A DNA stretch of 32,000 nt from Candidatus Saccharimonadota bacterium (GTDB taxonomy: Bacteria; Patescibacteriota; Saccharimonadia; Saccharimonadales; UBA4665). The position numbers and the translations under genes are program-made. Of the stretch, positions 1 through 32,000 are shown in pieces. Within the stretch, counting starts at the first letter, position 1. Each line of letters starts with the position of its first letter. Below the pieces are notes generated by a model. The model worked only from the letters and a program-made list of their open reading frames with translations. It had not been told where the DNA came from and did not search any database. The stretch lies in NCBI GenBank assembly GCA_963716945.1, contig OY970322.1:390001-422000 (forward strand). The letters are read 5' to 3'.

Positions 1-2646
1 GATAGCGGCTCCACCAGTAAGAACACCTTGACCTGGTCGGCGGTGACGGGCGCCACGGCTTACATAGTTTACGAGTCGACCAACGGCACGACCTGGTTTT
101 ATAACGAAGTCACTTCCGGCACGACCTCGATAGTTGATAACGGCACTAACTTTACCTGGACAAACTCGGGCACGCCGCCGAGTACCTCGACGACCGGCGG
201 TAACCTGACGGTTGGCGGTACGGTTCTGTTCCAAACCAAAGCCAACTCTACTACCGCTTTCCAAGTCCAAAACGCCGCCGGCAACAACTTCATCCAGGTA
301 GATACCAACGGTGCCAACCTTTATCTTGGTAACACCGGCATCGCCAGCACGATCCAGGTCGGCAACACCACCGGGGCCGTTGCCCAGACTATCGATATCG
401 GCAACAACGCCACCGCCAGCTCTTCGACAACCTTAGTCATCGGTTCGACTGTCGGTACCAGTCCGGTGACTGTCCAGTCCGGTACTTCCGGCACCACTTT
501 CACGCCGGCCGGTGGCAGCTCCAACACCGGCGTGCTGGTAAAACCGGTGTCTAACACCACTGCCGCCTTCCAAGTCCAAAACACCAGTAACGCCGCCGTC
601 CTGAACGTCGACGCGACTAACGGCACCACCACCCTGCAGGTGGCCACCGGCAACGACACGGCCACCCTTGGCGCCAACCTGGCCCCGACCAACTTCAGCA
701 CCGGCTGGACCGGCACCAACTGGACGCTCGCCAGCACCACTGCCGCCCACAACGCCCTGTCCGGCCACACCCAGGCCTTGTCGCCGACCACGCCCTTGGC
801 CACCACCTCCGGCCAGGTCTACCAGATCAGCTACACCATCACCAACCCGACTACCGCCGGCACCAGCCTGACGGTGGCCCTGGGCAGCACTACCATAGCC
901 TTCTACAACTTCGACGCTAACACGGCCGGCACCTACAGCTTCACCGACACCGTCATGGCGACCGCCCCCAGCAATAATGCCAACCTGACCTTCACGCCTG
1001 ATGCCTCCGGCCTGTTCACCGGCACCATATCGGCCGTTTCGGTCCAACTGGTGACCCAAAGCACCCACCCGGCTCTGGTAGTCGACAACGCTTCCGGCAA
1101 CCCCAACGTCCAGCTGCGGGCCAGTTCCGACACCCACAGCCTGCTCTTAGGCTTTGACGCCGGCGAATCCAACAGCAGCGGCACCAACAACACCGCCGTC
1201 GGTACCTATAGCTTGCAGGACAACGGCAGCGGTTCCTCCAACGTCGCCGTCGGTACCTTCGCTCTCCAGAATAACGCTTCCGGCAACGACAACAGCGCCT
1301 TGGGCTACGAGGCTCTCCAGTTCAACACTTCCGGCGGCCAGAACACGGCTATCGGCTACAATACTCTCAGCAGCAACACCACCGGCAGTTACAACGTGGC
1401 TGTCGGCAGCAACGGCCTGGCGTCCAACACCTTAGGCTACTCCAACACCGCCGTCGGCATAGCCACCTTGCAGAACAACACCACCGGCTCCGGCAACATA
1501 GCCCTGGGCAACAACACCTTGGAGAACAACACCACCGGCAACGGCAACATCGGCATCGGCGGCCTGGGCGATAACACTACCGGCAGTAACAACGTCGCTA
1601 TCGGCGGCCTGGGCAGCAACAATGGTTACTCCAACGTCGCTGTTGGTACCTTCAGCCTATACAACAGCACCGGCGTCAGCAACGACACAGCCATCGGTTA
1701 CCAGGCTTTGCAAAACGACGTCGGCGGCAGCTACAACGTCGGCCTGGGCTACGGCGCCAACGTGCTCAACGGCAGCCTGAACCTTAGCGGCGCCGACGCC
1801 ATCGGGGCCGGCACTCAAGTCGGTGCCAGCAATACCACTATCCTGGGCTACGGCCTTGCCAACGGCGCCAACCAGGCCGTCGGCATCGGCACGTCCTTCG
1901 CCCCCAACGAACTGACGGTCAGCCCGCAGACTTACGGCACCAACGGCACCGTAGGCAGCGGCACGACCATCACCCAGGGCAGCGGCTCCGGTACGGTTAC
2001 CGGCTCGGGAACGGCCTGGACTACCGGCATGGTCGGCGGTACCATCTACTACAGCGACGGCAGTACCGGCACGATCACGGCCGTAAGTTCGGGCACCAGC
2101 CTGACCAGCAGCAACACCACCGGCGGCTGGAGTTCGGCTACTTACAACATCGTCTGGGGCGGCTTCAACGTCAGCAACAGCGATACAGTGCTGCTGCAGC
2201 CGACTAGTAACTCTACTACGGCGTTTCAGATTAAGAACAACACCGGCGGTTTGCTGGTAGCGGCCGATACGACTAACATGACGCTGACCATAGACGGCCA
2301 CATCATCACCGGCAACGGCAATGGCGCTACGACCACGGCCACGCTTAACGGTAACGCCGGTACGGGCGGCAGCCCGAGCTGTACCGTCAGCGGTGACGAC
2401 ACCAGCGGTCAGATTACCCTCAAGACGGGCAGCACCAGCGGTTGGGCGGCCGGCATCCAGTGTACGATTAACTTCGGCACCAGCTACGCCAGCGCGCCGC
2501 ACCCGGTCCTGACCCCGGCCAGTAGCCAAGATGTCAGCGCCGTCAAACCGTACGTTACATCGGGCACGGGCAGTTTCACCGTCAGCTTCATCACCGCCGA
2601 TAACGCCCAGCACACTTACGTCTGGAATTACTTCAACGCCCAATAA
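1..2646 (+). CDS. Giant surface fibre protein, paralog A; only the 3' 881 codons are in the window (5' end lies upstream)
   Basis: Frame +1 is open from nt 1 (DSGSTSKNT precedes the track's TTG at 28). Stop is TAA at 2644-2646. Contains an FN3-like 'LTWSAVTGATAYIVYES' and a recurring module junction 'TTAFQVQN..G....VDT'. Also has a CBM/jelly-roll-like block and ~190 aa of 'NTA.G..AL..NT.G..N' repeats in YadA-head/Hep_Hag or phage tail-fibre style. The C-terminal ~115-aa domain ends TYVWNYFNAQ and is shared with three other ORFs. Confidence 0.9.
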   Translation, partial: DSGSTSKNTLTWSAVTGATAYIVYESTNGTTWFYNEVTSGTTSIVDNGTNFTWTNSGTPPSTSTTGGNLTVGGTVLFQTKANSTTAFQVQNAAGNNFIQVDTNGANLYLGNTGIASTIQVGNTTGAVAQTIDIGNNATASSSTTLVIGSTVGTSPVTVQSGTSGTTFTPAGGSSNTGVLVKPVSNTTAAFQVQNTSNAAVLNVDATNGTTTLQVATGNDTATLGANLAPTNFSTGWTGTNWTLASTTAAHNALSGHTQALSPTTPLATTSGQVYQISYTITNPTTAGTSLTVALGSTTIAFYNFDANTAGTYSFTDTVMATAPSNNANLTFTPDASGLFTGTISAVSVQLVTQSTHPALVVDNASGNPNVQLRASSDTHSLLLGFDAGESNSSGTNNTAVGTYSLQDNGSGSSNVAVGTFALQNNASGNDNSALGYEALQFNTSGGQNTAIGYNTLSSNTTGSYNVAVGSNGLASNTLGYSNTAVGIATLQNNTTGSGNIALGNNTLENNTTGNGNIGIGGLGDNTTGSNNVAIGGLGSNNGYSNVAVGTFSLYNSTGVSNDTAIGYQALQNDVGGSYNVGLGYGANVLNGSLNLSGADAIGAGTQVGASNTTILGYGLANGANQAVGIGTSFAPNELTVSPQTYGTNGTVGSGTTITQGSGSGTVTGSGTAWTTGMVGGTIYYSDGSTGTITAVSSGTSLTSSNTTGGWSSATYNIVWGGFNVSNSDTVLLQPTSNSTTAFQIKNNTGGLLVAADTTNMTLTIDGHIITGNGNGATTTATLNGNAGTGGSPSCTVSGDDTSGQITLKTGSTSGWAAGIQCTINFGTSYASAPHPVLTPASSQDVSAVKPYVTSGTGSFTVSFITADNAQHTYVWNYFNAQ
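647..1058 (+). repeat. 412-bp tract 100% identical to 21864-22275 in giant C
   Basis: Line-by-line comparison of the two stretches found no mismatch. The antisense track ORFs 668-871 and 21885-22088 translate identically. The tract encodes the CBM-like block GNDTATLGANLAPTNFSTGWTGTNW...ISAVSVQLVTQ. Confidence 0.95.
1651..2213 (+). repeat. 563-bp tract 100% identical to 22868-23430 in giant C, at the same 21217-nt offset
   Basis: Compared block by block (ttcagcctatacaacagcacc ... ccgactagtaactc). Identity ends at 2213/23430. Confidence 0.95.
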
Positions 2647-2728
2647 CCGTCTGCTAGCGCTTAAAACCGCTCTCCGCCGCTGCAAATCATAGCTTAGTAA
2701 GGGAGTGCTTGGTATAATCGTAAGCAAC

Positions 2729-3553
2729 ATGCGTAAACCGCGCCACTGGAGACTATTACCAACTGTAACCGGGCTGATCCTGATGGCGGTCAGCTTGAGT
2801 CCGGCTAGCGCCGCTTCGGCTAACATATCCCACTCTTATTCGGCAACTGGTAATATCCCAAACGGCACTATCGTCAGTTTGGACCCGCAGCACTCCGGCT
2901 ACGTCGAGCTGGCCAACACCTCCAACGACAGCCGGCTACTGGGAGTAGCGCTGCCCAGCGACCAATCACTATTAGCGGTTGACCCTAATAGCAGCAAGAC
3001 CCAAGTGGCTATCAGCGGTACTGTCGACACCCTGGTGAGTACGGTCAATGGCAATATTAAAGTCGGCGACCAGGTAAGCGTATCACCGTTTAGCGGGGTA
3101 GGTATGGAAGCGGCGCCTGGCAGCCGGACGATCGGCATCGCCCAAACGGCCTTCACATCTAGTACTAGCCAGGCCACGACTGAACGGGTGAAAGATACGT
3201 CCGGCACGAACCAAGAAGTAAAAGTCGGCTACATCCGGCTCACGATAGCCATTAGCAGCAAAAACGGCGGACCCGGCACCGGCTCTCAGGCCAACTTCTT
3301 ACAAAAGGTAGTCAAGTCATTAACTGGCCGCACCATTTCCACGATCCGCATATTGCTTAGCCTGGCGGTCGCTATTATCTCGTTGATTTCGTTGATCACA
3401 CTCATTTACGCCTCGATTTACGGCAGCATTATCTCGATCGGCCGCAACCCTTTGGCCCAAAGCGCCGTTTTCCGAACGCTGGCTTCGGTTATGAGCATGG
3501 CTTTCCTGACTACGGCCATCGCTTGCGTGACGATTTACTATCTGTTGCGTTAG
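2729..3553 (+). CDS. Membrane protein with N-terminal signal/anchor, beta-rich ectodomain module and a C-terminal two-helix hairpin with an IGRNPLA loop; paralog of 10196-11026
   Basis: The track ORF is 2705-3553 (GTG start). I prefer ATG 2729 (MRKPRHWRLL...). The paralog begins MRNMRKYF, and both genes share -10 box + 10 nt + ATGCGTAAA. The hydrophobic h-region ends in ASA. The ectodomain motif 'GNIKVGDQVSVSPFSGVGMEAAPGSRTIGIAQ' matches the paralog and giant C. Two C-terminal TM helices flank 'IGRNPLAQSAVFRTL'. Stop is TAG. Confidence 0.8.
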   Translation: MRKPRHWRLLPTVTGLILMAVSLSPASAASANISHSYSATGNIPNGTIVSLDPQHSGYVELANTSNDSRLLGVALPSDQSLLAVDPNSSKTQVAISGTVDTLVSTVNGNIKVGDQVSVSPFSGVGMEAAPGSRTIGIAQTAFTSSTSQATTERVKDTSGTNQEVKVGYIRLTIAISSKNGGPGTGSQANFLQKVVKSLTGRTISTIRILLSLAVAIISLISLITLIYASIYGSIISIGRNPLAQSAVFRTLASVMSMAFLTTAIACVTIYYLLR

Positions 3554-3727: not shown

Positions 3728-6700
3728 ATGGCAGACCAAAACGAAAGCTTATCCCTTGTCTACGAAGGCTCCTCGGTCGACTCGAGCTTGGAGACGCAAA
3801 GCGAGCCCCAGTTTAAGGCTAACCCGCCGCCTGAATACGAACAGGCGCCCAGACGCCTGTCATCCAGACGCAACCGCCGCAAGCTGCTTATAGTCAATAT
3901 CATCATACTCCTCCTTATTATCATAATAGGGCTGGTCAGCTTTTTCCTCTCTTCCGGCCCCAGGGCCACTAACGCCTCAACCAACCACAAGCTGGTTAGT
4001 TATGCCGCCTCTTCCTTGCCGGTCCAGAACATTCAGCCCAACCAGGCGCTCCAGGTTAGCGAAGCCAACCAGCTGTCCATCAACGGCCAGGTAACTATCG
4101 GTAACACCCTGGTCTTAGCCCCGACCGCTACCCCGACTACCCCGGTTACCGGTCAGATATATTACAACCAGTCTGACAATACGCCTTATTACTACGACGG
4201 TACGCGGTTTGTCAGTTTGGCGTCAGGAGCGGGATTGCAGACTACGGCCCAGAATGCCCCACAGCAGTTCGTGGCCTCCATTGGCGGCAGCAGCGGCTCT
4301 ATCGGCATCGGCAGTGGGCTGGCTCTAAGTGGTGGCGAGCTGCTAGTGCGACTGCAGGCCGGTCCGGGCATAACGGTGAACGGTTCGACGGTCTCCAGTA
4401 GCGGGGTTATCAGCTTGACGGCCGGCAGCTCGAACGTGTTCATTACCCAGGACGGCAAGGGCAACTACACGGTCAGCGACCATATAGCCAACCTGATTAC
4501 CGGCGGCGGTACTACCGGCCAAATTGCGCTTTTCAGCGGCAGCCAAGCCGTTGGCGATTCGATACTGGGACAAGCCGGCGCCAGCCTGACCGTCGCCGGT
4601 TCCTTCGTTGTCCAAAGCGCGGCGTCAGCCGCCTCACTGGCGGTCGCCAACGCTATTTCGGGTGGCACGCTTAGCGTAGCCGGCGGCAAACTGGCGGTGG
4701 ACGGTTCTGGTAATCTGACCCTGCAATCGGGCAGCACGATTTATGCTAATAACCTGGTTCAAACTGACAGTACCCAGCCGGTATCGATTAACGCCGGTGC
4801 TAAGCAGCTTGAATTCACCGCCAACGGCATCAACTTCACGCTCCCTAGTTCCGGCGGATCGACGCAAGTAATCTGCACGACCGGTATCAGTTGCGCTTCC
4901 GGCGGCGGCCAGGCGATTCTGCTGGCACCCAATGACAGCGCTTCGCCGACGGCGCACCCAACCGCACAAACTAACACCGCCGGCGACTTACCGTCGATTT
5001 TTATCAATAACACCGGCGGGGCCAACCTGTTGGAGCTGCAAGGCGACGGCGCGGACACTTTTGTCGTCGGCCAAAGCGGTGACACGGTTATCGCCGGTAC
5101 GCTCGCGGTCCAATCCGCCAATAGCCTGAGCCTCGGTACACCGGGGCCGGCCGGCAATAACGGTTCGGTCAGTTTTGCTAATGCCGCTGGCTTACATACC
5201 GTGACCTTGCAGGCACCAGTGACTGACCCGGCCAGTGATTTGATCTTTACTCTGCCGGCCAGCGACGGTGCCTCGGGTAATTGTATTAAAACTGATGGTA
5301 ACGGCAATCTCAGCTTTGGTAGCTGTGCTAGCGGCAGCGGTGCCACGGCCATTGGAGCGATTGACTCTCAGTCTAAGTCGCTTAATGGTGGCGTTATAAG
5401 CGGAACTAACCTTTATTTACAGTCGGCTGACGCTAATTTCCCCGGCTTAATAACTACTGGTAGCCAGACTCTGGCCGGCGATAAGTCCTTTAACGGTGAT
5501 ATTACTCTGTCCGGCACCGGCACCGGCCTGAGCGTTACTAACTCGGTTACTATCGGCACTGGCCTGACTGTGGCTGCCGGAGGTTTGACTGTCAGTGCCG
5601 GCACGGTTACCTTCAGCGGGCTTAATACGGCGGGCATTGTTACTAATACGTCCGCTGGCGTACTGGGGACAGTTGCTATTATTGGAGTTGGTAACGGCGG
5701 CACCGGTGCAGGCAGCTTTACGTCCGACGGTATCTTGTATGGCAACTCCGGGGGTATTATCCAGGTTACCGGCGCGGCCGCTAGCTCTATACTGGCCACT
5801 AACGCCAGCGATTTGCCGGGCTTGACCCAGACCTTGCCGTCAGCTGTCCAAGGCAACATTACCGCTACTGGTGCTTTGGCCGCCGGTTCTATCGCTTCGA
5901 CGTTTGGTAGTATCTCGACAGCCAGTAATATCCAGACCACGGCAACGGTCCAGGGTACCACGGTTACGGCTACGGGTGCTTTGCAAGGCAACTCCCTCAG
6001 TGTCAATGGCGGCGTGTTTGCTGTTAATAATACTGGGGCCATTACGGCCGCGACAGGTATCAGTTCTTCTGGCACGATCACCTTTAGCGGCCTGGGCACG
6101 GGCATACTGCAAGCCAGCGCCGGCGTGATCGGCCTTTATGGCGGCGGCCTGGTAGCCGGCGTGAAGGACGAGGCCGGAACCAGCCGCGGCGGTACTATAA
6201 CCCTTAACAACGTCACGTTTGGGATCGGAGGGGCCGCCAGCACCCTTACGATCGACACCGCCGACGCCACGCATAACGGGCTAGTTACTAACGGCGTCCA
6301 AACTATTGCTGGAGCCAAGACGTTAAGCGCCAACTTGACGCTGCAAGCCAGCCCGACGGCCTTGACCATTAACGGGCCGCCCAGCGGTACCACGTCCCTG
6401 ATCCAGCTTGGCTCGGCGCTTGGCACCGGCGTCGGCAGCAACATTAACTCCAACGGTACTTTCATCGGCCTTGACGCGGCTAGCGGCAGCAGCGCCGATT
6501 TACTGAATTTTCAGGCTAATGGTGTCAGCGACCTCCGGGTCGACAGTTCGGGCAATGTTTTTACGGCCGGAAACGTTACTGCCAGCGGCAGCCTCGCCGT
6601 CGTGTCGTCCAGCGGAAACACGGTCTCGTTACTAGCACCAAGCGGACTGGCCGCGGCTTCGACACTGACTTTGCCCAGCACTAACTATGGCAGCGCCGGC

Positions 6701-9700
6701 GACTGTCTCAAGCTGGCTTCCGGCAGCAGCGGCAATAACGGCGTTATAGATTTCGAAAACTGTCTCGGGGAACCCGGCGGTCCGCCGACCGGAGCGGCCG
6801 TAATACTGAACGCCGACCCGGTGGGTGGAACCGCCGGCCAGCAGCTCCAAGCGGCCTTTAACATTCAAAGCGCCGCTTACACGACCGGTAACGTCATCGA
6901 GGAGGGGCCGAGCGTTGCCGGGACGGCAGCTAACCTCTTGCAATTAGAGAATAACAGCGGCGTACAGACCTCGGCTTTCTGCCCCAACGGCAGCGAACTG
7001 TTGCTTAACCAGGCACCGAATACCTTTTGTTCGACCGCGAACGGTACCAGCGGCACGCCGTACGCCATAACGATCGGGACTGGTTCTAGCGCCCTGGCTG
7101 GCATTAACTTCGGCGGCGACAGCCAGATTTATCGTTCGGCCGCCAACACCTTCACCTTTGGGTCGGCAGCTTCGAGTCAAACGCTCCAGATATCGGCTAA
7201 TACCACCAACGGCTCGCCGGGCGGCTCGCTGACAATCCAGGGCGGTGCCGCTACGGGCCTGGTCAGCGGCGGCAACATAGTCTTGCAGGTATCACCGCCG
7301 CCGACCGCCGGTACGATTAGAAACTTTATAACCGGCCTGCTAGGGGCCACCGACGTTGCCGAGGACGGTACTTACCTATGGTGGACTACTGGCAGTACCG
7401 TGGGCCGCGCGACCCTTAACGGAAGCAGTACGCCAACCCACATCATCCCGAACTATTTCACGCTTGAAACCAAGCTCAACTACCTCGCGAGCGACGGCAA
7501 TTTCGTTTATATCTCGACTGGAGGTCGTACTATCGACAGGTTCACCATTACCAAAAATAATACTATCCCCACGTTTAGCCAAGGCAGTAACTACTGGCAA
7601 AATTATATCTGTTTGAGCAACGGGACCGTCAGTACCAGTAACGCTTCTTGCCCTAACGGCGGCGGCGACAACCTGCAAGGCCTGGCCTATGATTCTAGCA
7701 ACAAAATCATGTACTGGGCGGACAGGAGTGAAATAGGCGACTACAACACGGTTACTCTGACAGCTACCAACAACTGGTTCGTCACGAGCGGTTTGAGCAC
7801 TACCGGCTGTGGCAGCAACGGTTCCATGAACTCCGTGGGGGTCGATTCTATCAACAACATGATTTACTGGTTCTCGACGACCTGTACTGATATCGGCCAG
7901 GCCAATCTGCCCTCGGGCAATGCCGCGCCTACCAGCATCACGCCGGCCTGGTTTTCGCTTGTCGGCCAGGCCCAGGGCTCCCCATCCAGCATCCAGGGCT
8001 TGACTAGTGATGGAACTAACCTGTACTGGTCTAACATCAACAAAGACAGCATCGGCGACGTCAACATAGCCAGTGTCGCGGCGAACATGGCCAACCCGTC
8101 GAATCCGATCCTGGCTAACAGTAACCTGATATCCAATATCGGCTCGGGTACCGGCAATGGACCGCAGGGCATAGCCGTCAGCCTCACGCCTGGTTACCTG
8201 TATTGGACCCAACCAGTCGGGTCGCCGGGTTACATAGGCCGCGCCCTGGTATTAGCCACCCAGCCCAATCCCGAGCAGACGGTCTTTCAGCTAAGTGGTA
8301 CCGACGGCTCGGCACAGTTTAAGGACGCCGTCGATACTACTTCTAGCTTCCAGGTGCAGGACGCTAACGGGGCCGCGGTCTTCAACGTCGATACTCTTGA
8401 TAACGTCAGTAGCCTGGCCGGGCAATTCACGGCTGCCGGCGGCGTAACCGCCAGCGGCCTAAGCACACCGGCGGCGCCCACGATTACGCCGAACGTCCTC
8501 AATACCTGCTTGAGTTCCTCGACTACTTATACCTACGAGATCAGCGCTATTAACAGTAAGGGCGGTTCGACACCGGCCTCGGCCTTAGGTAGCACGACTT
8601 CGGGCTGCTCGTCGCTTGATACTGCGGGCGATAACATCAGCATTACCTGGACGGCCGTGCCGGGCGCTTACGGCTACAATGTTTACAGGGTAAGCAGCCC
8701 GTACACGGCTGGTTTGATCGGAACCGTGCTTACGGCTGGCGGCAGCCTATCCCTTACCGACACTGGCAACACCACACCGGTTATTTCCGCTACTGCGCCG
8801 CCAGTCAGCGACACCTCCGGCCAGCTGGCCACTTCTGGTGGCGGTGGTCTTTTGATCCAGGACGCCAGCAATACCAGCATTTTCAACGTTACTGCCGGCA
8901 GTACCTTGGCCGGGCTGGTCGCCAATGGCGATTTTGAGAGCCGCGGAACCGGGGGCTGGTTGGTGAAAAGTACCTCGTCTACCTCCACCACAGCTCTCTC
9001 AGCCGTTAATACCCAGGCGTGGGAAGGCCTTTATTCCATGAAAATAGCGGCTTCGGCCCTGGCCAATGACGGTGCCTACTACACCACCTCGTCGCCTATG
9101 GTTAGTTCGACGCAGTACACCTTGAGTTTTTACGCTAGAACCGGAAGCGGCACTATCAGTGACTTGGACGCCGGATACGAAGTGCAGGCGACGGCCACCG
9201 GGACGGGCACGGTGACTTCTACGGATACTAACTGTACCTTGTCAGCTAACTCCGTAAGCACGACCTGGACCCGATACACCTGTACGTTCACAACCGGCAC
9301 TATAACCCAAAACGGCAGTACCACCAGCACGACCAATATCTATATTAATAAGACCGGCAGCTCGGCGGAAACGTTTTACGTCGACGCCGTGCAGCTCCAG
9401 ACTGGCGGTTCGGCGACGGCTTTCAACAGCGGCAATACCATACAGATTAATGGAACTGTCAACACGGCCGTCCTCTTCCAGAACGGCCTTGATTCCACGA
9501 CCGCCTTCCAGGTTCAGAACGCGGCCGGCACGAGCAAGGTATTTGACGTTGACACCTTAGACGGCCGAGTTGGCGTTGGCACCAATGCCCCGGGTAACTT
9601 ATTGAGTATCGGCGCGTTGACGACGGCAGCCGGTACTTACCAGATAGCTGTCACTACCGGTGGCTCGGCTAATAGTGGTATTGTCGTCCAAACGGTGCTC

Positions 9701-10195: not shown

Positions 10196-11026
10196 ATGAG
10201 GAATATGCGTAAATACTTCAAATTCCTAGCCGGTCCCGCCAGCGTTCTGTTCCTGATTGGCTTAGCGGCTTCGGCGGCTGCCTCCGGCGTCCTAATCCAA
10301 AGCTACAATGCCGGCCCTTCGGTCCTGTCCGGCATGCTCGTCGAAACCGAAGCCCGCGACCAGTCTACCGTCGTTCCGCTGACTACCCAGGGCATCCGCG
10401 GTATGCTGGGGGTAGTCGTACCGGCCAACGACGCCGCCCTTGTCCTGTCGCCGCAATCCGCATCATCCCGCCAGGTCCTGGTGGCCGCCTCCGGCAATTA
10501 CGGCGTACTGGTTAGCAACCAGGACGGTTCGGTCAAATCAGGCGACTACCTGACCATGTCGTCGTTACCTGGTATCGCCATGAAAGCCGCCAGCGACCAG
10601 TCCGAGGTTATCGGCCGCGCCGGCGGTGATTTCGATGGTGTTAATAACACCCTATCGACGGTATCGCTCAAACTTGCCGCCGGCCGTTCGGCAAAAGTCT
10701 CCATCGGCCAGGTGCCAGTCAGTGTCCGACTCGGTCCGAACCCCCTCTACCAGAAAAGTAACTTGCCGGGATTTTTGAGCCGGGCGGCCAGCGACGTTTC
10801 TAATAAACCGGGCTCGATCCGGATTTACCTTAGTTCGGCCGTCTTACTGGCTACGCTTATCATCAGCGGCGTGATGTTTTATGGCAGCGTCCGCAGCAGC
10901 ATAACAGCCATCGGCCGCAACCCCCTGGCCAAGCGGGAAATCAGCCGTGACCTCGTCCAATCGGTTGCCGCCGGCCTGGTTATCTTCTTGGCTGGCATCC
11001 TGGCGGCCTACCTCATATTAATTTAG
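10196..11026 (+). CDS. Membrane protein, paralog of 2729-3553 (signal peptide, beta-rich ectodomain, C-terminal hairpin with IGRNPLA loop)
   Basis: ATG at 10196, with an alternative ATG at 10205 giving MRKYFKF. Signal-like FLIGLAASAAAS. 'GSVKSGDYLTMSSLPGIAMKAASDQSEVIGRAG' module. The C-terminal helices flank 'IGRNPLAKREISRDL'. Stop is TAG. It lies 33 nt behind giant B, as its paralog lies behind giant A. Confidence 0.85.
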   Translation: MRNMRKYFKFLAGPASVLFLIGLAASAAASGVLIQSYNAGPSVLSGMLVETEARDQSTVVPLTTQGIRGMLGVVVPANDAALVLSPQSASSRQVLVAASGNYGVLVSNQDGSVKSGDYLTMSSLPGIAMKAASDQSEVIGRAGGDFDGVNNTLSTVSLKLAAGRSAKVSIGQVPVSVRLGPNPLYQKSNLPGFLSRAASDVSNKPGSIRIYLSSAVLLATLIISGVMFYGSVRSSITAIGRNPLAKREISRDLVQSVAAGLVIFLAGILAAYLILI

Positions 11027-11039
11027 ATCCGGGGCAAGA

Positions 11040-12768: not shown

Positions 12769-12773
12769 CGCCG

Positions 12774-12794: not shown

Positions 12795-12805
12795 TATAAT
12801 TAAGC

Positions 12806-18547: not shown

Positions 18548-18550
18548 GAC

Positions 18551-19777: not shown

Positions 19778-22700
19778 ATGTACGAAACTGCTCCGCGAGG
19801 GCATATCGCGTCCGAACGTACCCATGGGCTACGGGCTAAGAGGGTAATTTTTGCCGTTGGTGGCAGCTTGCTGGCCCCGACGGTGTTTTTATATACGCGC
19901 GCGTACGCGCGTATTAACAAGCTGCGTACCCGCGGTTTCATTCTGGCCATTGTGGCGCTGGCCCTGTTAACTTCGGTCGGCCTGAGTTTGTTGAGGCCGG
20001 CCCAAACCGTTGCCGCCACTGACAGCAGTATCAACTTCCAGGCCCGGTTGGAAACCAACACCGGTGCGATCGTGCCTGACGGCTGGTACAACATTGAGTT
20101 CAAGATGTATAGCGTTTCCAGCGGCGGCAGCCCCGAGTGGACCGAAGACTACACTTGGAACAATGGCAGTGCCAACTGTACTACACCCGTTTTCCAGGCT
20201 ACCGGCGACTGCCGCGTCAAGGTGGTTAACGGCTACCTGACGGTTAATCTGGGCTCGATTACCAGTTTCCCGGGCACGATTAACTGGGACCAGCAGCAGT
20301 GGGTGACGATGAACATCGGCGGTACCGGCGGCAGCGGTTCTTTCCCCGGCATCGGCGACGGCGAAATGAACCCCCGTTTGCAGCTAACCGGTGTACCGTA
20401 CTCCTTCCGGTCAGGGCAGGCTGGCGGCTTGTTCGATCCGGCTGGCACTGGCGCGGCTCTAAGCTGGATTACCCAAACCGCCGCCAACGTGCTGCAGCTA
20501 CCTAACGAAGGCGGAACATTGTGTATCGACGGTGACACTAGTGGTTGTGGTTTTGCTCCGGGTACCGGAGGCGCGGGTTATATCCAGAACCAGAATGCTT
20601 CGGCCCAAACTACCTCCAACTTCTGGATTAGCGGTAGCGGCCAGGCTACTACTTCGTTCATAGCGCCGACTTATACCGGGGGCGGCGCGGTCGCCGTATC
20701 CTCCGGGGGGACTAATACCAATTTGACCCTTACGGCCAACGGTACCGGGACGGCTAGCCTAGATACGGGGGCTAACGGCGGCACGGTATCCGTAGCTTTG
20801 ACGGCCGGCACGTTAAACCTGGCAAATTCTGCCAGCGCCACGACTATTAACATCGGCAACACGTCCGGCGCTACCGGTATTACCGAGCGCGTCGGTACCG
20901 GCAACTACAGCCTGGACGGTGTCGCCGGCTCCACCTACAGCCTGGGCGCTTCCACGACCACGGGTACTATCCTAATTGGCGGCACGGCTCAGACCGGCAG
21001 CATCACCCTGGGCAGCTCTTCCGGCACTAACTCCGTCCTAATAGGCAACGGTGCCGGGGCTACGACCGTCAACATCGCCAACACCGAAACCGGCGGTGCC
21101 GTCAACATCGGTACGGCTATGACTACCGGCACGGTCTCCATTGGCGGTACCGGCGCCCAGACTGGCACCATTAGCCTGGGTATCGGTACCGGCGTCCAGA
21201 CGATTAACCTGGCCACTGGCGGTACCGGCGCCAAGACCGTCACGGTCGGTTCGGCCGCTTCCACTTCGTCATTACTGCTACAATCCGGTACCGGCAACTT
21301 GTCCCTGCAGACCCAGGGCACCGGCACCTTAGGCGTTGGCAACAATGCCGTGGCGCAGAACCTGGCCATCGGCAATGCTACGGGGGCTACGACCGTGTCG
21401 GTCCTATGCGGTACGGGCATCTGTGGCTTCGGGAATAACGCTACCAGCCATAGTACTAGTATCGGGTCCGGTACAGGTGTTAGCGCTTTGACTCTTCAGG
21501 GCGGCACCGGTGGCGCCTCACTGGATTCTGGCACGGGCAGCATAACAATCGGTAACAGTGCCAACAACAAGACCATCACAATCGGTGCCAGTGGGAGCAC
21601 GGCCAATACTACGACCGTCAATATCGCTACTTCTACAGGTGCCTCTCAGACGGTCAATATCGGCTCGAACTCTGGCACCAGTCCCGTCACCATAGGTAGC
21701 GGCACCAGCGGTATCACGCTTAACCCGTCAGGCGGCAGTTCCAACCAGGGCGTCCTGGTCAAGCCTGACGCCGACACGACCGCTGCCTTCCAGATTCAAA
21801 GGGCCGGCAGTAGCACCGACCTGCTCAACGCCGATACTGCCAATATGACGCTGACTGTCCAAGCCGGCAACGACACGGCCACCCTTGGCGCCAACCTGGC
21901 CCCGACCAACTTCAGCACCGGCTGGACCGGCACCAACTGGACGCTCGCCAGCACCACTGCCGCCCACAACGCCCTGTCCGGCCACACCCAGGCCTTGTCG
22001 CCGACCACGCCCTTGGCCACCACCTCCGGCCAGGTCTACCAGATCAGCTACACCATCACCAACCCGACTACCGCCGGCACCAGCCTGACGGTGGCCCTGG
22101 GCAGCACTACCATAGCCTTCTACAACTTCGACGCTAACACGGCCGGCACCTACAGCTTCACCGACACCGTCATGGCGACCGCCCCCAGCAATAATGCCAA
22201 CCTGACCTTCACGCCTGATGCCTCCGGCCTGTTCACCGGCACCATATCGGCCGTTTCGGTCCAACTGGTGACCCAGAACACTGACCCAGTTCTAGTAGTT
22301 AACAACGCCTCTGCCGTTGACGACCTAGAAGTCCGGGCCAGCAGCAGTACTACCAACCTCTTCGTCGGTCTCAGTGCGGGAGCGTCAAACGCCACCGGTA
22401 TCGACAATCTGGCGCTGGGCAACAACGCTTTCCAGTACAACACTGGCGGCAGTACCAACCTGGCTATTGGCGCTGATGCCCTCCAGTACAACACCACCGG
22501 CAACGACAACAGCGCCTTGGGCTACGAGGCTCTCCAGTTCAACACTTCCGGCGGCCAGAACACGGCCCTGGGTTCCGGCGCTCTCAGCGACAATACGATC
22601 GGCAGTTACAACGTGGCTGTAGGCGGCAACTCGCTCCAGTACAACAGTTCGGGCTACTCCAACACCGCCGTCGGCATAGCCACCTTGCAGAACAACACCA

Positions 22701-25700
22701 CCGGCTCCGGCAACTTGGCCATCGGCAATAACGCCCTTGGCGGCAACACCACCGGCAACAACAACATCGGCATCGGTGGCCTGGGCGTCAACAGCACCGG
22801 TTCGTTTAACGTCGGCATCGGCAGCTTGCGCGAGAACAACGGCAACGCCAACGTCGGCATCGGCGTCTTCAGCCTATACAACAGCACCGGCGTCAGCAAC
22901 GACACAGCCATCGGTTACCAGGCTTTGCAAAACGACGTCGGCGGCAGCTACAACGTCGGCCTGGGCTACGGCGCCAACGTGCTCAACGGCAGCCTGAACC
23001 TTAGCGGCGCCGACGCCATCGGGGCCGGCACTCAAGTCGGTGCCAGCAATACCACTATCCTGGGCTACGGCCTTGCCAACGGCGCCAACCAGGCCGTCGG
23101 CATCGGCACGTCCTTCGCCCCCAACGAACTGACGGTCAGCCCGCAGACTTACGGCACCAACGGCACCGTAGGCAGCGGCACGACCATCACCCAGGGCAGC
23201 GGCTCCGGTACGGTTACCGGCTCGGGAACGGCCTGGACTACCGGCATGGTCGGCGGTACCATCTACTACAGCGACGGCAGTACCGGCACGATCACGGCCG
23301 TAAGTTCGGGCACCAGCCTGACCAGCAGCAACACCACCGGCGGCTGGAGTTCGGCTACTTACAACATCGTCTGGGGCGGCTTCAACGTCAGCAACAGCGA
23401 TACAGTGCTGCTGCAGCCGACTAGTAACTCCAATAAGGCGTTTCAGGTACAAAACAATCTAGGCACGACACTCTTAAACGTAGATACGTCCGGTAATACT
23501 CTTAGTCTCGGCGTCACTGGCAGTACGGCTATCGCCAGTACGATAAACATTGCCAACACCACCGGCAACGCCACCCAAACCATCAACATCGGTGCCACGA
23601 ATGCTGCCGGCAACACCGTCCTGATACAGGGAGGTACAGGTACGGGTGTTTCTCTCCAGGTAGCGGCCAGCGGGACGATTGCGGTCGGCACAACAGTTCA
23701 AACCAGCACTCTAGATCTTGGCAACACCAGCGCCTCCTCTACAACCCTGATTAATGGCGGCACCGGCGCCAGCGCCATATCCTTACAAGCCGGTGCCGGC
23801 GGAACGATCTTGCTTGGCACAAGCGGCTCTACGGCCAACGCGACTACTGTAGATATAGCTAACACCACCGGCAACGCCACCCAAACCATCAACATCGGTG
23901 CCACAAATGCTGCCGGCAACACCGTCCTGATACAGGGCGGTACAGGTACAGGCGTCTCCATCCAGGTCGCCGGTACGGGCACAATTGCTATTGGTACTAC
24001 CAACGCCGACACCGTCAGCCTCGGTGCTGTTGGCAGTACAGCCAATGCCACTACCGTCAACATTGCTAACACTACTGGTGCTGCTATCCAGACGGTTAAC
24101 CTAGGTTCGCTCTCCAGCACTTCGCTTACTAAGATCCAAGGTGGTACCAGTGCTTCGGCTATAATCTTGCAATCAGGTAACGGGAGCACGATTACAATAG
24201 GCAGCCAGACTGCCAGCACCACTAACGCCATAATTATAGGTGCTTCCGCGGCTACTGCGAACGCCGACAACATAAGCATTGATAACACCAGCGGTACCAA
24301 TGCCGGCACTATCACCATCGGCGGCAGCGGCACTGCCACAGGTGCCATAACGCTTGGCCAGTCCACCGGCTCCCAAACGGTTAATGTCGGTGTTGGTGCA
24401 CCCGCAGCGGGAGCAACTCAAACAATTAAGATAGGTACGACTGTTTCTGCTACTACCGGCACTACTGCGATTACGATTGGCGGCACTAGTACAACCACAA
24501 ACGGCGCCACTAGCGTTAGTATCCTGGCCGGCAACCACTCCGGCTCGACTGTCGCTAATGGTTCCAGGACTACTACCGACACGGACTCTACGGGTATCAA
24601 AGTATCGCTTGGTGATATGACAAGTAGTATTGGACTCTGTATTGGTGGCTTGCTTACCGGGGTGGCCCCAACTTCCGGTACTGCCTACGAGCTAGTTGAC
24701 TGTAATAATACTCCCACCGCTGACTATGCCGAGGAATATCCGGTCGCGGCAGGTGTAGGCGTTGGCGATGTCGTAGCTACCGGCACCCAAATGGTTAACA
24801 CATATGATACTGATGGTCCTAACGGGTCGGTTGACTGGAGTACAGTGAAAGGCCAGATTACCCAGCTAGTTCAATCTGATCAGGCTTACCAGTCGAACGC
24901 TATCGGTATTGTTTCGGATAACAACTCCGATTTCAGCTCTACTGGTTACAATATCAAGGCTGAAGACAACCCCATGTCCGTCGCCTTAAACGGCCGTGTT
25001 CCGGTGAATGTTACTACTGAGAATGGACCAATTGAACCTGGTGATTATCTAACTACTTCGGCTACTATTCCAGGCTATGCCATGAAAGCCACCCAAGCTG
25101 GCTATGTTATTGGCCGCGCTTTGAGCTCATACGACGGTTCCGGACCGGGTCAAGTAATGGTCTTCGTCGGTGATGGCTACTATCCTGGACCTGATGCCAG
25201 CAGCTACCTGCAACAAGACAGTGACGCTAACCTGGCAAGCCTTTCTGTAAACGGGAACACACTACTTTCTAACCTAGACGTAACCGGCGACAGTACCCTA
25301 AGCGATCTAAACGTCAGCGGACCCACAACCCTGAATGGCCTGACCGTAACCGGCGACGCCAACGTCCAGGGCAACCTGACGGTAGCAGGCAACGCCACGA
25401 TCGGCGGCTCGCTAACCGTAACCGGCCTGACCAGTGTGGCGGACCTGGAGGTCAGCGGCCACATAATTACCTCGGGCGGGGAACCGACGTCCCAGATTCA
25501 GGCCGCGGCCGGCAGCGACGCGGTTGTCAGCATCGCCGGCACCGATACCACCGGCACGATAAGCATTACCACCGGTAGCAACCCGACATCCGGCTCGCTA
25601 GCCGATATCCTCTTCAGCAAAGCCTACGGCGCCGCGCCGCACATAGTCCTCAGCCCGTCCAATAACAATGCCGCCGGCCTGCGCTACTTCAAGGGCACGA

Positions 25701-25786
25701 CGACCACCAACGACTTCATGTTCAACGTCATCGACAACCCGGCCCCGAACACGACCTACCAGTACGACTACTTCATTGGCCAGTAG
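19778..25786 (+). CDS. Giant surface fibre protein, paralog C (2002 aa)
   Basis: ATG start and TAG stop. Signal/anchor GFILAIVALALLTSVGLSLL..AQTVAA|TD. Long '..T.NI(A/G)....G..QT(I/V)N(I/L)G' beta-helix-like repeats. A CBM-like block and Hep_Hag-like repeats are shared with A. A tandem-repeat insert (23431-24560) is followed by a beta-barrel-like module 'ADYAEEYPV...GPIEPGDYLTTSATIPGYAMKATQAGYVIGRAL'. A stalk of 'L.V.G' heptad-like units precedes the C-terminal shared domain, which ends TYQYDYFIGQ. Confidence 0.93.
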   Translation: MYETAPRGHIASERTHGLRAKRVIFAVGGSLLAPTVFLYTRAYARINKLRTRGFILAIVALALLTSVGLSLLRPAQTVAATDSSINFQARLETNTGAIVPDGWYNIEFKMYSVSSGGSPEWTEDYTWNNGSANCTTPVFQATGDCRVKVVNGYLTVNLGSITSFPGTINWDQQQWVTMNIGGTGGSGSFPGIGDGEMNPRLQLTGVPYSFRSGQAGGLFDPAGTGAALSWITQTAANVLQLPNEGGTLCIDGDTSGCGFAPGTGGAGYIQNQNASAQTTSNFWISGSGQATTSFIAPTYTGGGAVAVSSGGTNTNLTLTANGTGTASLDTGANGGTVSVALTAGTLNLANSASATTINIGNTSGATGITERVGTGNYSLDGVAGSTYSLGASTTTGTILIGGTAQTGSITLGSSSGTNSVLIGNGAGATTVNIANTETGGAVNIGTAMTTGTVSIGGTGAQTGTISLGIGTGVQTINLATGGTGAKTVTVGSAASTSSLLLQSGTGNLSLQTQGTGTLGVGNNAVAQNLAIGNATGATTVSVLCGTGICGFGNNATSHSTSIGSGTGVSALTLQGGTGGASLDSGTGSITIGNSANNKTITIGASGSTANTTTVNIATSTGASQTVNIGSNSGTSPVTIGSGTSGITLNPSGGSSNQGVLVKPDADTTAAFQIQRAGSSTDLLNADTANMTLTVQAGNDTATLGANLAPTNFSTGWTGTNWTLASTTAAHNALSGHTQALSPTTPLATTSGQVYQISYTITNPTTAGTSLTVALGSTTIAFYNFDANTAGTYSFTDTVMATAPSNNANLTFTPDASGLFTGTISAVSVQLVTQNTDPVLVVNNASAVDDLEVRASSSTTNLFVGLSAGASNATGIDNLALGNNAFQYNTGGSTNLAIGADALQYNTTGNDNSALGYEALQFNTSGGQNTALGSGALSDNTIGSYNVAVGGNSLQYNSSGYSNTAVGIATLQNNTTGSGNLAIGNNALGGNTTGNNNIGIGGLGVNSTGSFNVGIGSLRENNGNANVGIGVFSLYNSTGVSNDTAIGYQALQNDVGGSYNVGLGYGANVLNGSLNLSGADAIGAGTQVGASNTTILGYGLANGANQAVGIGTSFAPNELTVSPQTYGTNGTVGSGTTITQGSGSGTVTGSGTAWTTGMVGGTIYYSDGSTGTITAVSSGTSLTSSNTTGGWSSATYNIVWGGFNVSNSDTVLLQPTSNSNKAFQVQNNLGTTLLNVDTSGNTLSLGVTGSTAIASTINIANTTGNATQTINIGATNAAGNTVLIQGGTGTGVSLQVAASGTIAVGTTVQTSTLDLGNTSASSTTLINGGTGASAISLQAGAGGTILLGTSGSTANATTVDIANTTGNATQTINIGATNAAGNTVLIQGGTGTGVSIQVAGTGTIAIGTTNADTVSLGAVGSTANATTVNIANTTGAAIQTVNLGSLSSTSLTKIQGGTSASAIILQSGNGSTITIGSQTASTTNAIIIGASAATANADNISIDNTSGTNAGTITIGGSGTATGAITLGQSTGSQTVNVGVGAPAAGATQTIKIGTTVSATTGTTAITIGGTSTTTNGATSVSILAGNHSGSTVANGSRTTTDTDSTGIKVSLGDMTSSIGLCIGGLLTGVAPTSGTAYELVDCNNTPTADYAEEYPVAAGVGVGDVVATGTQMVNTYDTDGPNGSVDWSTVKGQITQLVQSDQAYQSNAIGIVSDNNSDFSSTGYNIKAEDNPMSVALNGRVPVNVTTENGPIEPGDYLTTSATIPGYAMKATQAGYVIGRALSSYDGSGPGQVMVFVGDGYYPGPDASSYLQQDSDANLASLSVNGNTLLSNLDVTGDSTLSDLNVSGPTTLNGLTVTGDANVQGNLTVAGNATIGGSLTVTGLTSVADLEVSGHIITSGGEPTSQIQAAAGSDAVVSIAGTDTTGTISITTGSNPTSGSLADILFSKAYGAAPHIVLSPSNNNAAGLRYFKGTTTTNDFMFNVIDNPAPNTTYQYDYFIGQ
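21864..22275 (+). repeat. Partner copy of 647-1058 (100% identical)
   Basis: See 647-1058. The offset is 21217 nt. Confidence 0.95.
22868..23430 (+). repeat. Partner copy of 1651-2213 (100% identical)
   Basis: See 1651-2213. The offset is the same 21217 nt. Confidence 0.95.
23555..23956 (+). repeat. In-frame tandem repeat with a 306-nt (102-aa) period inside giant C
   Basis: aacaccaccggcaacgccacccaaaccatcaacatcggtgccac... at 23555 recurs at 23861. The first 44 nt are identical, then one mismatch, then 32 identical nt. The peptide IANTTGNATQTINIGATNAAGNTVLIQGGTGTGVS is repeated, and a third, more diverged unit follows (NIANTTGAAIQTVNLG...). Confidence 0.85.
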
Positions 25787-25881: not shown

Positions 25882-26433
25882 ATGAAAAAGTCTTTTCGGG
25901 GAAAGCTAGGCCTGTTCATGGTTATAGTATTGGCGGTTGTAGGCGGTGGTTTAACCGATTCTATAGTTAGGGCTGCCATACCTGATAGCAACGGAGTGAT
26001 ACATGCTTGTTATACGACCGGAGTCCTAGCTAAGGTAAAGATTATAGACAGTGCTACTCAAAGCTGTGGTCCTCTAGAAACACCGATTAGCTGGAGCCAA
26101 AGCGGCGGTTCATCTACTGCCTTAGTAAGCTTAAATGATGACGGTACTCTTAACACGCAGTACTCCAGAGGAGTCTCGAGCATTAAGCTTGTAAGAGATG
26201 GCACAAATCAAACCTATAATGTGTGTTTCGACCTTACTAGTCCACCGGTATGGGGCACAAGTAGTGGCGGAGGCTATGAATACGTTACCTCAAGCAGTAT
26301 CCCTACTGATGTATCACAGGTATCTCAGCTCTGTGGCGCAGGATATAATGCAGTAAGTACTTCTTGGGGAGACCCATCAGTTAACCCATACTCTTCCCCA
26401 TACTCCTCAATACGATATATATTCTGGAATTAG
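25882..26433 (+). CDS. Small secreted protein (183 aa), function unknown
   Basis: SD GGGGGAG lies 6 nt before the ATG. Signal-like LGLFMVIVLAVVGGG...VRA|A. The N-terminal motif 'IPDSNGVIHACY...C...ETPISWSQSGG' is one I recall at the start of many uncharacterised secreted bacterial proteins. The gene looks visibly more AT-rich than its neighbours. Stop is TAG. Confidence 0.75.
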   Translation: MKKSFRGKLGLFMVIVLAVVGGGLTDSIVRAAIPDSNGVIHACYTTGVLAKVKIIDSATQSCGPLETPISWSQSGGSSTALVSLNDDGTLNTQYSRGVSSIKLVRDGTNQTYNVCFDLTSPPVWGTSSGGGYEYVTSSSIPTDVSQVSQLCGAGYNAVSTSWGDPSVNPYSSPYSSIRYIFWN

Positions 26434-26920: not shown

Positions 26921-30104
<3,184 letters not shown>

Positions 30105-30166: not shown

Positions 30167-30340
30167 TTAGCACCGATTACAGTCGTTTGTCTTAATTGGC
30201 ATATTTCAAACATTTGAACTACGGCCTAAACACGGCCTACGTCCAAACGTTTGAAAACGCCGCGTGAGCTGATCTTTAAGCCGTGATTTTGTAATCAATG
30301 GACACCGATCAGGCGTCTCATCTACGGAGAGACGACCTGA

Positions 30341-30452
30341 TTGGTGCCCATAGCCCGAGGGCAACACCTGTTCCCATGCCGAACACAGCAGTTAAGCCTC
30401 GGAGCGGTTACAATACTTGGGGTCCACCCCTGGGAAAATAGCACGGTGCCAA
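30341..30452 (+). rRNA. rrf: 5S ribosomal RNA
   Basis: ttggtgcccatagc...cctgttcccatgccgaacacagcagttaagc...ggggtccacccctgggaaaatagcacggtgccaa matches the 5S consensus (CCCATGCCGAAC.CAG.AGTTAAGC). The terminal helix pairs ttggtgcc with ggtgccaa using two G-U pairs. Confidence 0.9.
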
Positions 30453-30462
30453 ATTTTGAAGA

Positions 30463-30512: not shown

Positions 30513-31118
30513 CTAATAATTCCGCGCCGGCAGGCGGGCCTGCAGGTCGTCGAAGGCCGCTTGGCTGACTTCGCCCATGGGGTAGGCGCCGGTGGCTACG
30601 TCCCTGACCGTAGTCGCCAGCCAGCGGTGTGTCAAGGCGGCCCCGGCCGCCGGGGCCGGCTCGGCCATATGGGGGACGTGCGCTATCTGCCGGAATACGA
30701 GCGAGCCGGCCCCGAAGCCGTCGGCGTAAACCGGGCTGAAGGGGAAGTATTGGGCCAGGTCGCCGCGTTCGCCGAAAAACCCCGGGCCGCCGTAGCCCTC
30801 CGGTTCGAATTGGCCCAAGGTTAAACAGATGACAGGGTCGCTGTCATTAGGGAAGCGGTCCAGCCGCCCGAACGAGGTTATGTGGTGCCGGCGATGGTGG
30901 TGGGTTTCCCTGGAGGCCGCGATTCCCATAGCGTGGGCAGTCCGGGTTACCGCGTCCGACGCCTCGTGGCAGGCTTGGGAGCGGTGGATTGAGGCCGGTT
31001 TCTTGTTGCCGGGCTCCGCCAGGCCCAGCAGGGCCATCGTTTCCAGCAGCGCGTAAGCCTTAGCCATAATCTCGGCGGCGGCATCGTGATCGTTGACACC
31101 GATGGTTGTCTCGCTCAT
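30513..31118 (-). CDS. Hypothetical protein (201 aa), no family recognised
   Basis: ATG at 31118 and TAG at 30513-30515. Minus-strand TACAAT (plus-strand 31127-31132) lies 8 nt upstream of the ATG, with no SD. GC-rich codon usage. His-rich 'ETHHHRRHH'. The antisense track ORFs are shorter. Confidence 0.65.
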   Translation of the reverse strand: MSETTIGVNDHDAAAEIMAKAYALLETMALLGLAEPGNKKPASIHRSQACHEASDAVTRTAHAMGIAASRETHHHRRHHITSFGRLDRFPNDSDPVICLTLGQFEPEGYGGPGFFGERGDLAQYFPFSPVYADGFGAGSLVFRQIAHVPHMAEPAPAAGAALTHRWLATTVRDVATGAYPMGEVSQAAFDDLQARLPARNY

Positions 31119-31296: not shown

Positions 31297-31494
31297 ATGG
31301 CAGGAACTAAAGCTGGCGGCCGTGCCGCCGCCGCAACCAACAAGACCAAATATGGCGCGGATTTCTACGCCAAGATTGGTGCCAAGGGCGGTAGGCTCGG
31401 CCGGACCGGTGGCTTCTACGCCAACCGCGAACTGGCCCGAGCAGCCGGTGCCAAGGGCGGCCGCATCTCGCGGCGCACCAAGAAAAGCGCCTAA
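31297..31494 (+). CDS. KGG-repeat general stress protein (GsiB/YciG-like), 65 aa
   Basis: Canonical SD AAGGGAG lies 8 nt before the ATG. Two 'FYAKIGAKGG' / 'ELARAAGAKGG' units match the KGG stress-protein repeat (compare GsiB 'EFYQEIG.KGGEA'). Stop is TAA. Confidence 0.8.
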   Translation: MAGTKAGGRAAAATNKTKYGADFYAKIGAKGGRLGRTGGFYANRELARAAGAKGGRISRRTKKSA

Positions 31495-31520: not shown

Positions 31521-31548
31521 ACAAGCCCCCGCTTGAGCGGGGGCTTGT
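31521..31548 (+). terminator. Perfect 12-bp hairpin between convergent genes
   Basis: acaagcccccgc (31521-31532), loop ttga, gcgggggcttgt (31537-31548), followed by tgtttgg, which is only a weak U-tract. Confidence 0.6.
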
Positions 31549-31562
31549 TGTTTGGCGAGGGT

Positions 31563-32000
31563 TTAGAGGGCGGCGGCCGAAGTTTGCGGCACGTCTTTAC
31601 GGCGGCGGTAGGCCCGGCAGAAGCGGCTGGCCGTCACCCGCCAGGTGGTGTGGCAATTAAAACAACGATAATGGATAAAATCCCCCTGTTGGAGACATTT
31701 GGTAGAGCAGGTCGGGCAGATGCTGCGTTTGTACAGCCAATCGCGGTAGGTGTCGAGACAATCCTGGATATGGTCTTCGTCAATCGCCAGGCCCAAGCCG
31801 GCCGCCAGGCCGCGGGCTTTCTCCCAGGCGGCAACTTCCAGTTTGAGCAATTCGAAATCGGCCTTGTAGCTGCGGTGGTCGAGCAGGGCGTGGCCGGTTT
31901 CGTGCAGCAGTGACCAGACGGCGCGTTGGCCGCCGGCCTCGGCCCTATAGAATATTTCACCGGTTTCCGGCGACCAGTAAAACTGCCGGCCGGGGGTGAA
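31563..32000 (-). CDS. HExxH metallopeptidase (ImmA/IrrE-like) with a C-terminal CxxC...CxxC zinc ribbon; N-terminus lies outside the window
   Basis: My own translation of the minus strand shows the frame of track ORF 31563-31850 stays open to nt 32000: FTPGRQFYWSPETGEIFYRAEAGGQRAVWSLLHETGHALLDHRSYKADFE|LLKLEV... It contains HETGH. The C-terminus has CPTCSTKC...CFNCH. Stop is TAA at 31563-31565. Confidence 0.75.
   Translation of the reverse strand, partial: FTPGRQFYWSPETGEIFYRAEAGGQRAVWSLLHETGHALLDHRSYKADFELLKLEVAAWEKARGLAAGLGLAIDEDHIQDCLDTYRDWLYKRSICPTCSTKCLQQGDFIHYRCFNCHTTWRVTASRFCRAYRRRKDVPQTSAAAL

Follow-up and report, generated by a model that had tools for sequence, protein, structure and literature searches.

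TGA is very probably an ordinary working stop codon, used by a minority of genes (roughly 10-25%), in the genome of a Candidatus Saccharimonadota bacterium from which a stretch of 32,000 nucleotides was analysed (contig OY970322.1 of assembly GCA_963716945.1, positions 390,001 to 422,000; called the window below, at its full length). None of the 17 terminated protein genes in the window ends in TGA, and this absence is best read as a local sampling effect in a Saccharimonadales genome that follows the standard bacterial code. An earlier note, made from the letters of the window alone, had proposed that TGA is unassigned, that release factor 2 (RF2) has been lost, or that a reassignment is under way; this proposal fails, since 4 of 17 genes adjacent to the window end in TGA at termini that are orthologous among relatives. 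The note had also said that a genome-wide TGA frequency typical for the guanine-plus-cytosine (GC) content (tens of percent), together with an intact RF2 gene (prfB), would make the window a sampling accident, and in the accessible sample outside the window TGA amounts to 24% of the stops. Table 11 is the right code for this genome, and a TGA-free run of this kind is unfit for inferring recoding. The sole unusual element is a TAG-rich and TGA-poor set of stops at high GC, resting on 34 genes.

The genes adjacent to the window were tied to the same genome by exact-sequence look-ups of proteins, which placed them on one contig of 1,099,440 bp (NCBI, ENA and Logan); the Logan short-read contigs all come from the metagenome run ERR11523672. 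Two window proteins (16436-17482 and 30513-31118) lie on this long contig, as does the ROK kinase, whose gene stands directly beyond the right end of the window on Logan contig L002, which also carries the last genes of the window. The same contig holds FtsZ, methionine aminopeptidase (MAP), YqeY, a winged-helix (wHTH) regulator and Fmt (P0129), all from Logan contig L027, as well as ribosomal protein S1 (P0283) from Logan contig L035; Fmt P0129 was found through a search with the Fmt protein of the relative L003. Logan contigs L027 and L036 (14 kb) encode NrdR, FtsZ, FtsA, MAP, Adk, YqeY, S21, the wHTH regulator, PriA, Def, Fmt, DUF5663 and IF-2. The order Fmt, DUF5663, IF-2, S1, ROK kinase, a 161-amino-acid gene and a KGG-repeat gene is the same in the relatives L003, L028, L030 and L031. 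Given the shared contig and this conserved order, L027, L036 and L035 therefore adjoin the right end of the window, and GC content and codon statistics are alike in the window and L027. The 17 further genes thus placed end in TAG nine times, in TAA four times and in TGA four times, the TGA-ended genes being those for MAP, YqeY, the wHTH regulator and NrdR. When MAP, YqeY and wHTH are aligned at their C-termini with other Saccharimonadales orthologues, their TGA coincides exactly with the TAA or TAG of the latter, and the TGA of yqeY lies within an ATGA overlap with the start of adk that is kept in most of the order. Because these TGA stops are conserved, we infer that RF2 is present and functional in this genome; loss of RF2 is not compatible with them. 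Both gene sets together give 34 genes of the same genome with 12 TAA, 18 TAG and 4 TGA stops (35%, 53% and 12%).

Within the window itself, independent calls of open reading frames (ORFs), compared with the gene calls for L032, a close relative, reproduced the reported stops of the 17 terminated genes exactly, with 8 TAA, 9 TAG and no TGA. The statement that some 8800 codons contain no in-frame TGA also stood, at 8,857 codons upon recount, and there are 257 out-of-frame TGA within the same genes. TAG was rightly called the commonest stop, at 9/17 in the window and 18/34 over both gene sets. An ORF at 668-871, cited as antisense, does end in TGA at 869-871 but lies on the plus strand in another frame. 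The longer TGA-ended ORFs are located inside the 23S rRNA (29542-29862) or on the strand opposite a conserved gene (31533-31913) and are consequently not genes. Genes and rRNAs fill 93% of the window; the intergenic gaps hold only ORFs of 27-53 amino acids, some with a TGA end, whose conservation was not checked, and none of them was counted as a gene. The chance of finding no TGA among 17 stops is about 2e-5 for a typical bacterium at the composition of the window, where TGA would make up some 46% of stops, but it rises to 0.010 at the rate outside the window (4/17) and to about 0.11 at the rate of all 34 genes (4/34). A genome of 1.1 Mb contains about 34 windows of 32 kb, and because TGA use in the lineage is low and that many windows are scanned, one TGA-free window is unremarkable.

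Of the claim that TGA serves neither as a sense codon nor as a stop, only the first half thus survives, since TGA does end 4 of the 34 genes. As to that first half, no TGA occurs in frame, at Gly or Trp positions or elsewhere, among 13,072 codons of 32 genes, in which 398 TGA occur out of frame, and reading TGA as sense leaves all real gene boundaries unchanged. A tRNA with the anticodon UCA was found neither in the window nor in 29 related loci scanned, although this is a weak test that covers a small fraction of the genomes. No release-factor gene was detected by its GGQ motif across 0.95 Mb of fetched loci, and the literature searched gave nothing specific on prfB or stop usage in Saccharibacteria or Patescibacteria. 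A back-up stop readable by release factor 1 (RF1), i.e., TAA or TAG within three codons, follows 12% of the TGA stops versus 9% of the TAA and TAG stops (p = 0.40), and this lack of enrichment argues against strong leakiness of TGA.

Within the Saccharibacteria (TM7), the organism is an unusually GC-rich member of the soil type with a genome of about 1.1 Mb, and the best homologues of its ROK kinase and Fmt are named Candidatus Saccharimonadales or Patescibacteria. Its closest relative, from JGI sample 3300001408 (loci L028 and L032), has lineage-specific proteins 82-91% identical to those of the window. In L032, TGA closes the orthologues of the genes at 2729-3553 and 18551-19441 with no change in protein length, where the window has TAG. 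The ROK kinase gene ends in TAA here, in TGA in L003, L004 and L031, and in TAG in L005. By a hand tally, the stop differs between this genome and its closest relative at about 12 of 26 shared genes, including changes from TAG to TGA. Judged from a table of orthologous stops covering 27 loci, the three stops interchange freely in this clade. Among 398 conserved ORFs from 28 loci around ROK and Fmt, there are 192 TAA, 127 TAG and 79 TGA stops, and 333 ORFs from 45 metagenomic pam loci have 127 TAA, 110 TAG and 96 TGA stops (29% TGA). The TGA share of the present genome, 4/34, does not differ significantly from that of GC-rich relatives (34/152, p = 0.24) or of the order (79/398, p = 0.36). The ratio of TAG to TGA itself differs between genomes (Monte-Carlo p ~5e-5): TAG dominates in L048 (GC 0.58; 12 TAG versus 3-5 TGA), L064 (8 versus 0), L075 (6 versus 0) and L013 (9 versus 0), whereas L059, L042, L050 and L014 are TGA-dominated contigs.

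Several further observations were made among the relatives. In a low-GC group of Saccharimonadales (L008, L010-L013, L020 and L023), TGA ends 5 of 96 conserved genes, and in L008, L010, L011 and L013 the otherwise conserved TGA of yqeY is replaced by TAA. In some Saccharimonadia contigs, TGA ends none of 8-14 genes. The loci L003, L004 and L006 present Saccharimonadales gene neighbourhoods under the titles Candidatus Dormiibacterota or Verrucomicrobiia, which suggests that these metagenome-assembled genome records are mislabelled or mis-binned SMAG assemblies.

What is unusual in the present genome is the split between TAG and TGA, a skew also present in the wider class. G makes up 0.573 of the two-fold A/G third positions, and the GC content of third codon positions (GC3) is 0.72. 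A model built on 736 bacterial genomes (Povolotskaya et al. 2012, PMC3549826), when applied at this G share, gives 0.35 TAA, 0.19 TAG and 0.46 TGA, against 0.35, 0.53 and 0.12 observed (chi-square p ~4e-7); TAA is as predicted, and TAG and TGA look swapped. The suggestion that TGA is disfavoured, or under a selective bias, is in line with these figures (about 12% TGA and 53% TAG of 34 stops, where about 46% and 19% are expected). A mutational bias against TGA, the other alternative raised, is not: out of frame TGA outnumbers TAG both here (398 versus 280) and in the relatives (4,972 versus 2,883). The 18:4 ratio of TAG to TGA at stops departs from the out-of-frame 280:398 with P = 1e-4, and the skew is confined to termination sites and is not a trinucleotide bias. 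In bacteria at large, TAG stays flat near 20% and is unresponsive to GC, and non-stop contexts follow the same trend, a situation known as the 'TAG paradox' (Ho and Hurst 2021, 2022; PMC8789281, PMC9348620). The 34-gene sample is atypical both for its level of TAG and for the mismatch between stop and non-stop contexts. By eye, neither the base before TAG stops nor the +4 base follows a context pattern, and only shared CTAG overlaps stand out. At L027 8638-8641 and 10918-10921, convergent genes overlap by the palindromic 4-nt CTAG, which gives each strand a TAG stop; the pairs are priA with a gene for 245 amino acids, and fmt with the DUF5663 gene. In the relative L028 the latter junction is a 4-nt TTAA overlap, with fmt ending in TAA. 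By geometry, convergent 4-nt overlaps allow TAA or TAG but never TGA.

Other explanations of the TGA-free window can be set against these data. Were prfB, the RF2 gene, lost or inactivated, TGA would be unassigned and every gene would close with a stop readable by RF1 (TAA or TAG). The window taken by itself, with TGA at 0/17 stops and 0/8,857 in-frame codons, is what such a loss would produce, but on the window's own contig the genes for MAP, YqeY, wHTH and NrdR end in TGA, and the TGA of the yqeY overlap is kept across most of the order, so that this explanation is extremely unlikely. Still nearer to nil is the probability that TGA has been reassigned, to Gly as in code 25 or to Trp as in code 4, with the window lacking such codons by chance. 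The organism does belong to the Candidate Phyla Radiation (CPR)/Patescibacteria, where code 25 occurs, TGA is rare at its stops, and prfB is reported absent from the available Gracilibacteria genomes (PMC6851277). However, a sense codon would be expected in frame, where 13,072 codons contain none versus 398 out of frame; ORF boundaries are identical with TAA and TAG as the only stops, TGA aligns with the TAA and TAG termini of orthologues, and the tRNA scan, weak as it is, gave no tRNA-UCA.

Two explanations remain. The TGA-bearing contigs L027 and L036 might come from a co-occurring close relative and not from the genome of the window. They are short-read Logan assemblies of a metagenome run, and Fmt is 81% identical to its L003 counterpart versus 93% for the ROK kinase, both of which would fit a mixture; yet every protein tested was found on exactly one long contig, the 1,099,440-bp one, in the same three sources as the window proteins, each look-up returned one contig above 1 Mb plus one Logan contig, and by synteny with four relatives the pieces fall into the order expected. 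A foreign origin of these contigs is accordingly very unlikely. It is less far-fetched, though still unlikely, that the absence of TGA is a regional property, the cluster of pam genes and giant surface proteins having a stop usage of its own through horizontal origin, high expression or want of ATGA-type overlaps. Indeed, 13 of the 14 protein genes to the left of the rRNAs point the same way and there is no overlap among the 14, whereas of the four TGA stops outside, one (yqeY) stands in an ATGA overlap. On the other side, 2 of 11 orthologues of the same cluster in the closest relative end in TGA, the TGA share in the 45 metagenomic pam loci is 29%, and GC and codon statistics are, as noted above, similar in the window and L027. 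Some points nevertheless weigh against reading the window as a mere sampling effect in a TAG-preferring genome. TGA ends 0/17 genes inside the window and 4/17 outside, which is suggestive by Fisher's test (p = 0.10) and could reflect a mild regional effect. The 34 genes are about 3% of the genome and come from one neighbourhood of about 48 kb, which makes the genome-wide frequencies estimates, with 95% intervals of 3-27% for TGA and 35-70% for TAG. The ORFs of the relatives were picked by conservation in two syntenic neighbourhoods where gene families recur, so that their counts are not independent and the comparisons with them are descriptive. Finally, the closest relative (L028 and L032) is TAA-dominated, with TAG at 7/26 genes versus 18/34 here (p = 0.06), and the TAG excess may be narrower or noisier than it appears.

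With the standard code and a local sampling effect as the preferred reading, the TAG preference calls for a cause, for which we can only infer a mechanism. Most economically, termination may be weighted towards RF1, with a low ratio of RF2 to RF1 kept from low-GC (AT-rich) ancestors; alternatively, selection might act against TGA as the more read-through-prone stop. Under either cause, GC pressure would convert TAA to TAG and not to TGA. Gene packing makes a minor contribution through the convergent 4-nt CTAG overlaps. We put forward tentatively, at somewhat short of even chances, that this genome and several unrelated Saccharimonadia share RF1-weighted termination in which TAG absorbs the GC pressure, and that the nearly TGA-free state of some low-GC Saccharimonadales may represent the one from which UGA reassignment arose elsewhere in the CPR. 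If true, such RF1-weighted termination would be a lineage-level exception to the bacterial rule by which TAG is suboptimal everywhere and does not respond to GC.

The window has a GC content of 57% and contains 23S and 5S rRNA genes, and a tRNA scan of it found none. Fourteen protein genes stand upstream of the rRNAs, 13 of them on the plus strand. The features of the window are as follows.

1-2646, plus strand: gene for a giant surface protein (3' part), TAA at 2644-2646; in L032 the orthologue, with 60% identity, has TAG.
2729-3553, plus strand: secreted, membrane-anchored protein of 274 amino acids, TAG at 3551-3553; the L032 orthologue is 86% identical, of equal length, and ends in TGA.
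3728-10162, plus strand: giant protein of 2144 amino acids with a CBM_4_9 domain, TAG.
10196-11026, plus strand: protein of 276 amino acids, paralogue of 2729-3553, TAG; the L032 orthologue ends in TAA.
11040-12023, minus strand: protein of 327 amino acids, TAA at 11040-11042; in L032 the orthologue, with 90% identity, also has TAA.
12076-12768, plus strand: protein of 230 amino acids, TAG; the L032 orthologue is 84% identical, of equal length, and ends in TAG.
12806-13558, plus strand: PamT, the tip pilin of the CPR Pam pilus (NF058579, 271 bits), TAA.
13650-14972, plus strand: protein of 440 amino acids in the pam cluster, without a family match, TAA; the L032 orthologue ends in TAG.
15109-16428, plus strand: protein of 439 amino acids, paralogue of 13650-14972, TAA.
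16436-17482, plus strand: protein of 348 amino acids with a Pam pilin C-terminal domain, TAA; found on the 1,099,440-bp contig.
17525-18547, plus strand: protein of 340 amino acids, TAG.
18551-19441, plus strand: PamR, an RbmA-like pilus anchor (NF058578, 370 bits), TAG at 19439-19441; the L032 orthologue is 84% identical, of equal length, and ends in TGA.
19778-25786, plus strand: giant repeat protein of 2002 amino acids, TAG.
25882-26433, plus strand: secreted protein of 183 amino acids, TAG.
26923-30104, plus strand: 23S rRNA (2577 bits); its internal ORFs, including the TGA-ended one at 29542-29862, are not genes.
30340-30454, plus strand: 5S rRNA.
30513-31118, minus strand: protein of 201 amino acids, TAG at 30513-30515.
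31297-31494, plus strand: KGG-repeat protein of 65 amino acids, TAA, as in nearly all relatives.
31563-32000, minus strand: 3' part of a gene for 161 amino acids that continues past the window end, TAA at 31563-31565; at its start it overlaps with the stop of the neighbouring ROK kinase gene outside the window.

A pam operon makes up the core of the window (10196-19441); in it PamT, the protein with the Pam pilin C-terminal domain and PamR score above or near the curated NCBIfam cut-offs; PamT and PamR, both CPR-specific, are above them. The Pam pilus operon has recently been described as CPR-specific and chaperone-assisted (bioRxiv 10.64898/2026.03.03.709456). The proteins at 2729-3553 and 10196-11026 are distant paralogues of about 275 amino acids, about 28% identical, and may be chaperones like PamC and PamD; judged by eye, the former begins with a signal peptide and carries a hydrophobic segment at its C-terminus. 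For the first of them, the real start is probably the ATG at 2729 and not the GTG at 2705, since an exact look-up of the GTG-start version (2705-3553) gave no match. The paralogues of about 440 amino acids at 13650-14972 and 15109-16428 show 72-75% identity to each other's L032 orthologues. The three giant proteins (1-2646, 3728-10162 and 19778-25786) are rich in Gly, Thr and Ser, and BLAST reveals a C-terminal domain of about 130 amino acids common to these plus-strand genes and to the 327-amino-acid protein on the minus strand (11040-12023). These four may correspond to the 'tail fibre-like' proteins beside pam operons in the Pam pilus preprint.

Regions upstream of start codons (e.g., 3728, 15109 and 19778) are rich in A and T and have no motif resembling a Shine-Dalgarno sequence. 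The 23S rRNA of the window is 3,182 nt long versus 2,925 nt of the Rfam model, with about 260 nt inserted, and it is preceded by a protein gene and not by 16S rRNA, so that the rRNA genes are unlinked. An ORF for a LAGLIDADG endonuclease lies within the 23S region of the closest relative (L028 14589-15083) and is lacking in the window.

Among known systems, code 25 of Gracilibacteria and Absconditabacteria (SR1) belongs to the same superphylum (CPR/Patescibacteria), and the scarcity of TGA at the gene ends of the window resembles it. It differs in that here TGA ends conserved genes and never occurs in frame, and there is no sign of prfB loss, whereas no prfB was found in the available Gracilibacteria genomes (PMC6851277). 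If TGA had truly been lost or reassigned in a GC-rich Saccharibacterium, it would be a new code event in the CPR, affecting gene calling throughout the lineage, but the evidence is to the contrary. Code 4, in which UGA is read as Trp after RF2 loss, is found in Mycoplasmatota and in insect endosymbionts, among them the GC-rich Hodgkinia (PMC2704378; PMC12421855). The present organism shares with these a small genome and a probably host-dependent lifestyle, and loss of RF2 would give a TGA-free pattern, but here 4 of 34 stops are TGA, no TGA occurs in frame within genes, and no suppressor tRNA was found in the loci scanned.

A further comparison is with AT-rich bacteria, i.e., those with high AT content at third codon positions (AT3), in which RF2 abundance is exceptionally low according to the summary of Wei et al. 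(2016) in PMC8789281. The RF2-specific TGA is likewise little used here; however, that pattern belongs to high AT3, in contrast to a GC3 of about 0.72 here. Compared with the general bacterial trend, in which TGA rises with GC and TAG stays at about 20%, the TAA share of 35% is as predicted, whereas TAG at 53% and TGA at 12% depart from the expected 19% and 46%, and the out-of-frame trinucleotides show no such swap. A GC3-rich bacterium in which TAG is apparently the commonest stop, within a class whose lineages vary strongly in TAG:TGA, also touches the question whether the balance of release factors is a cause or a consequence of stop usage, and it is a natural test case for the 'TAG paradox'.

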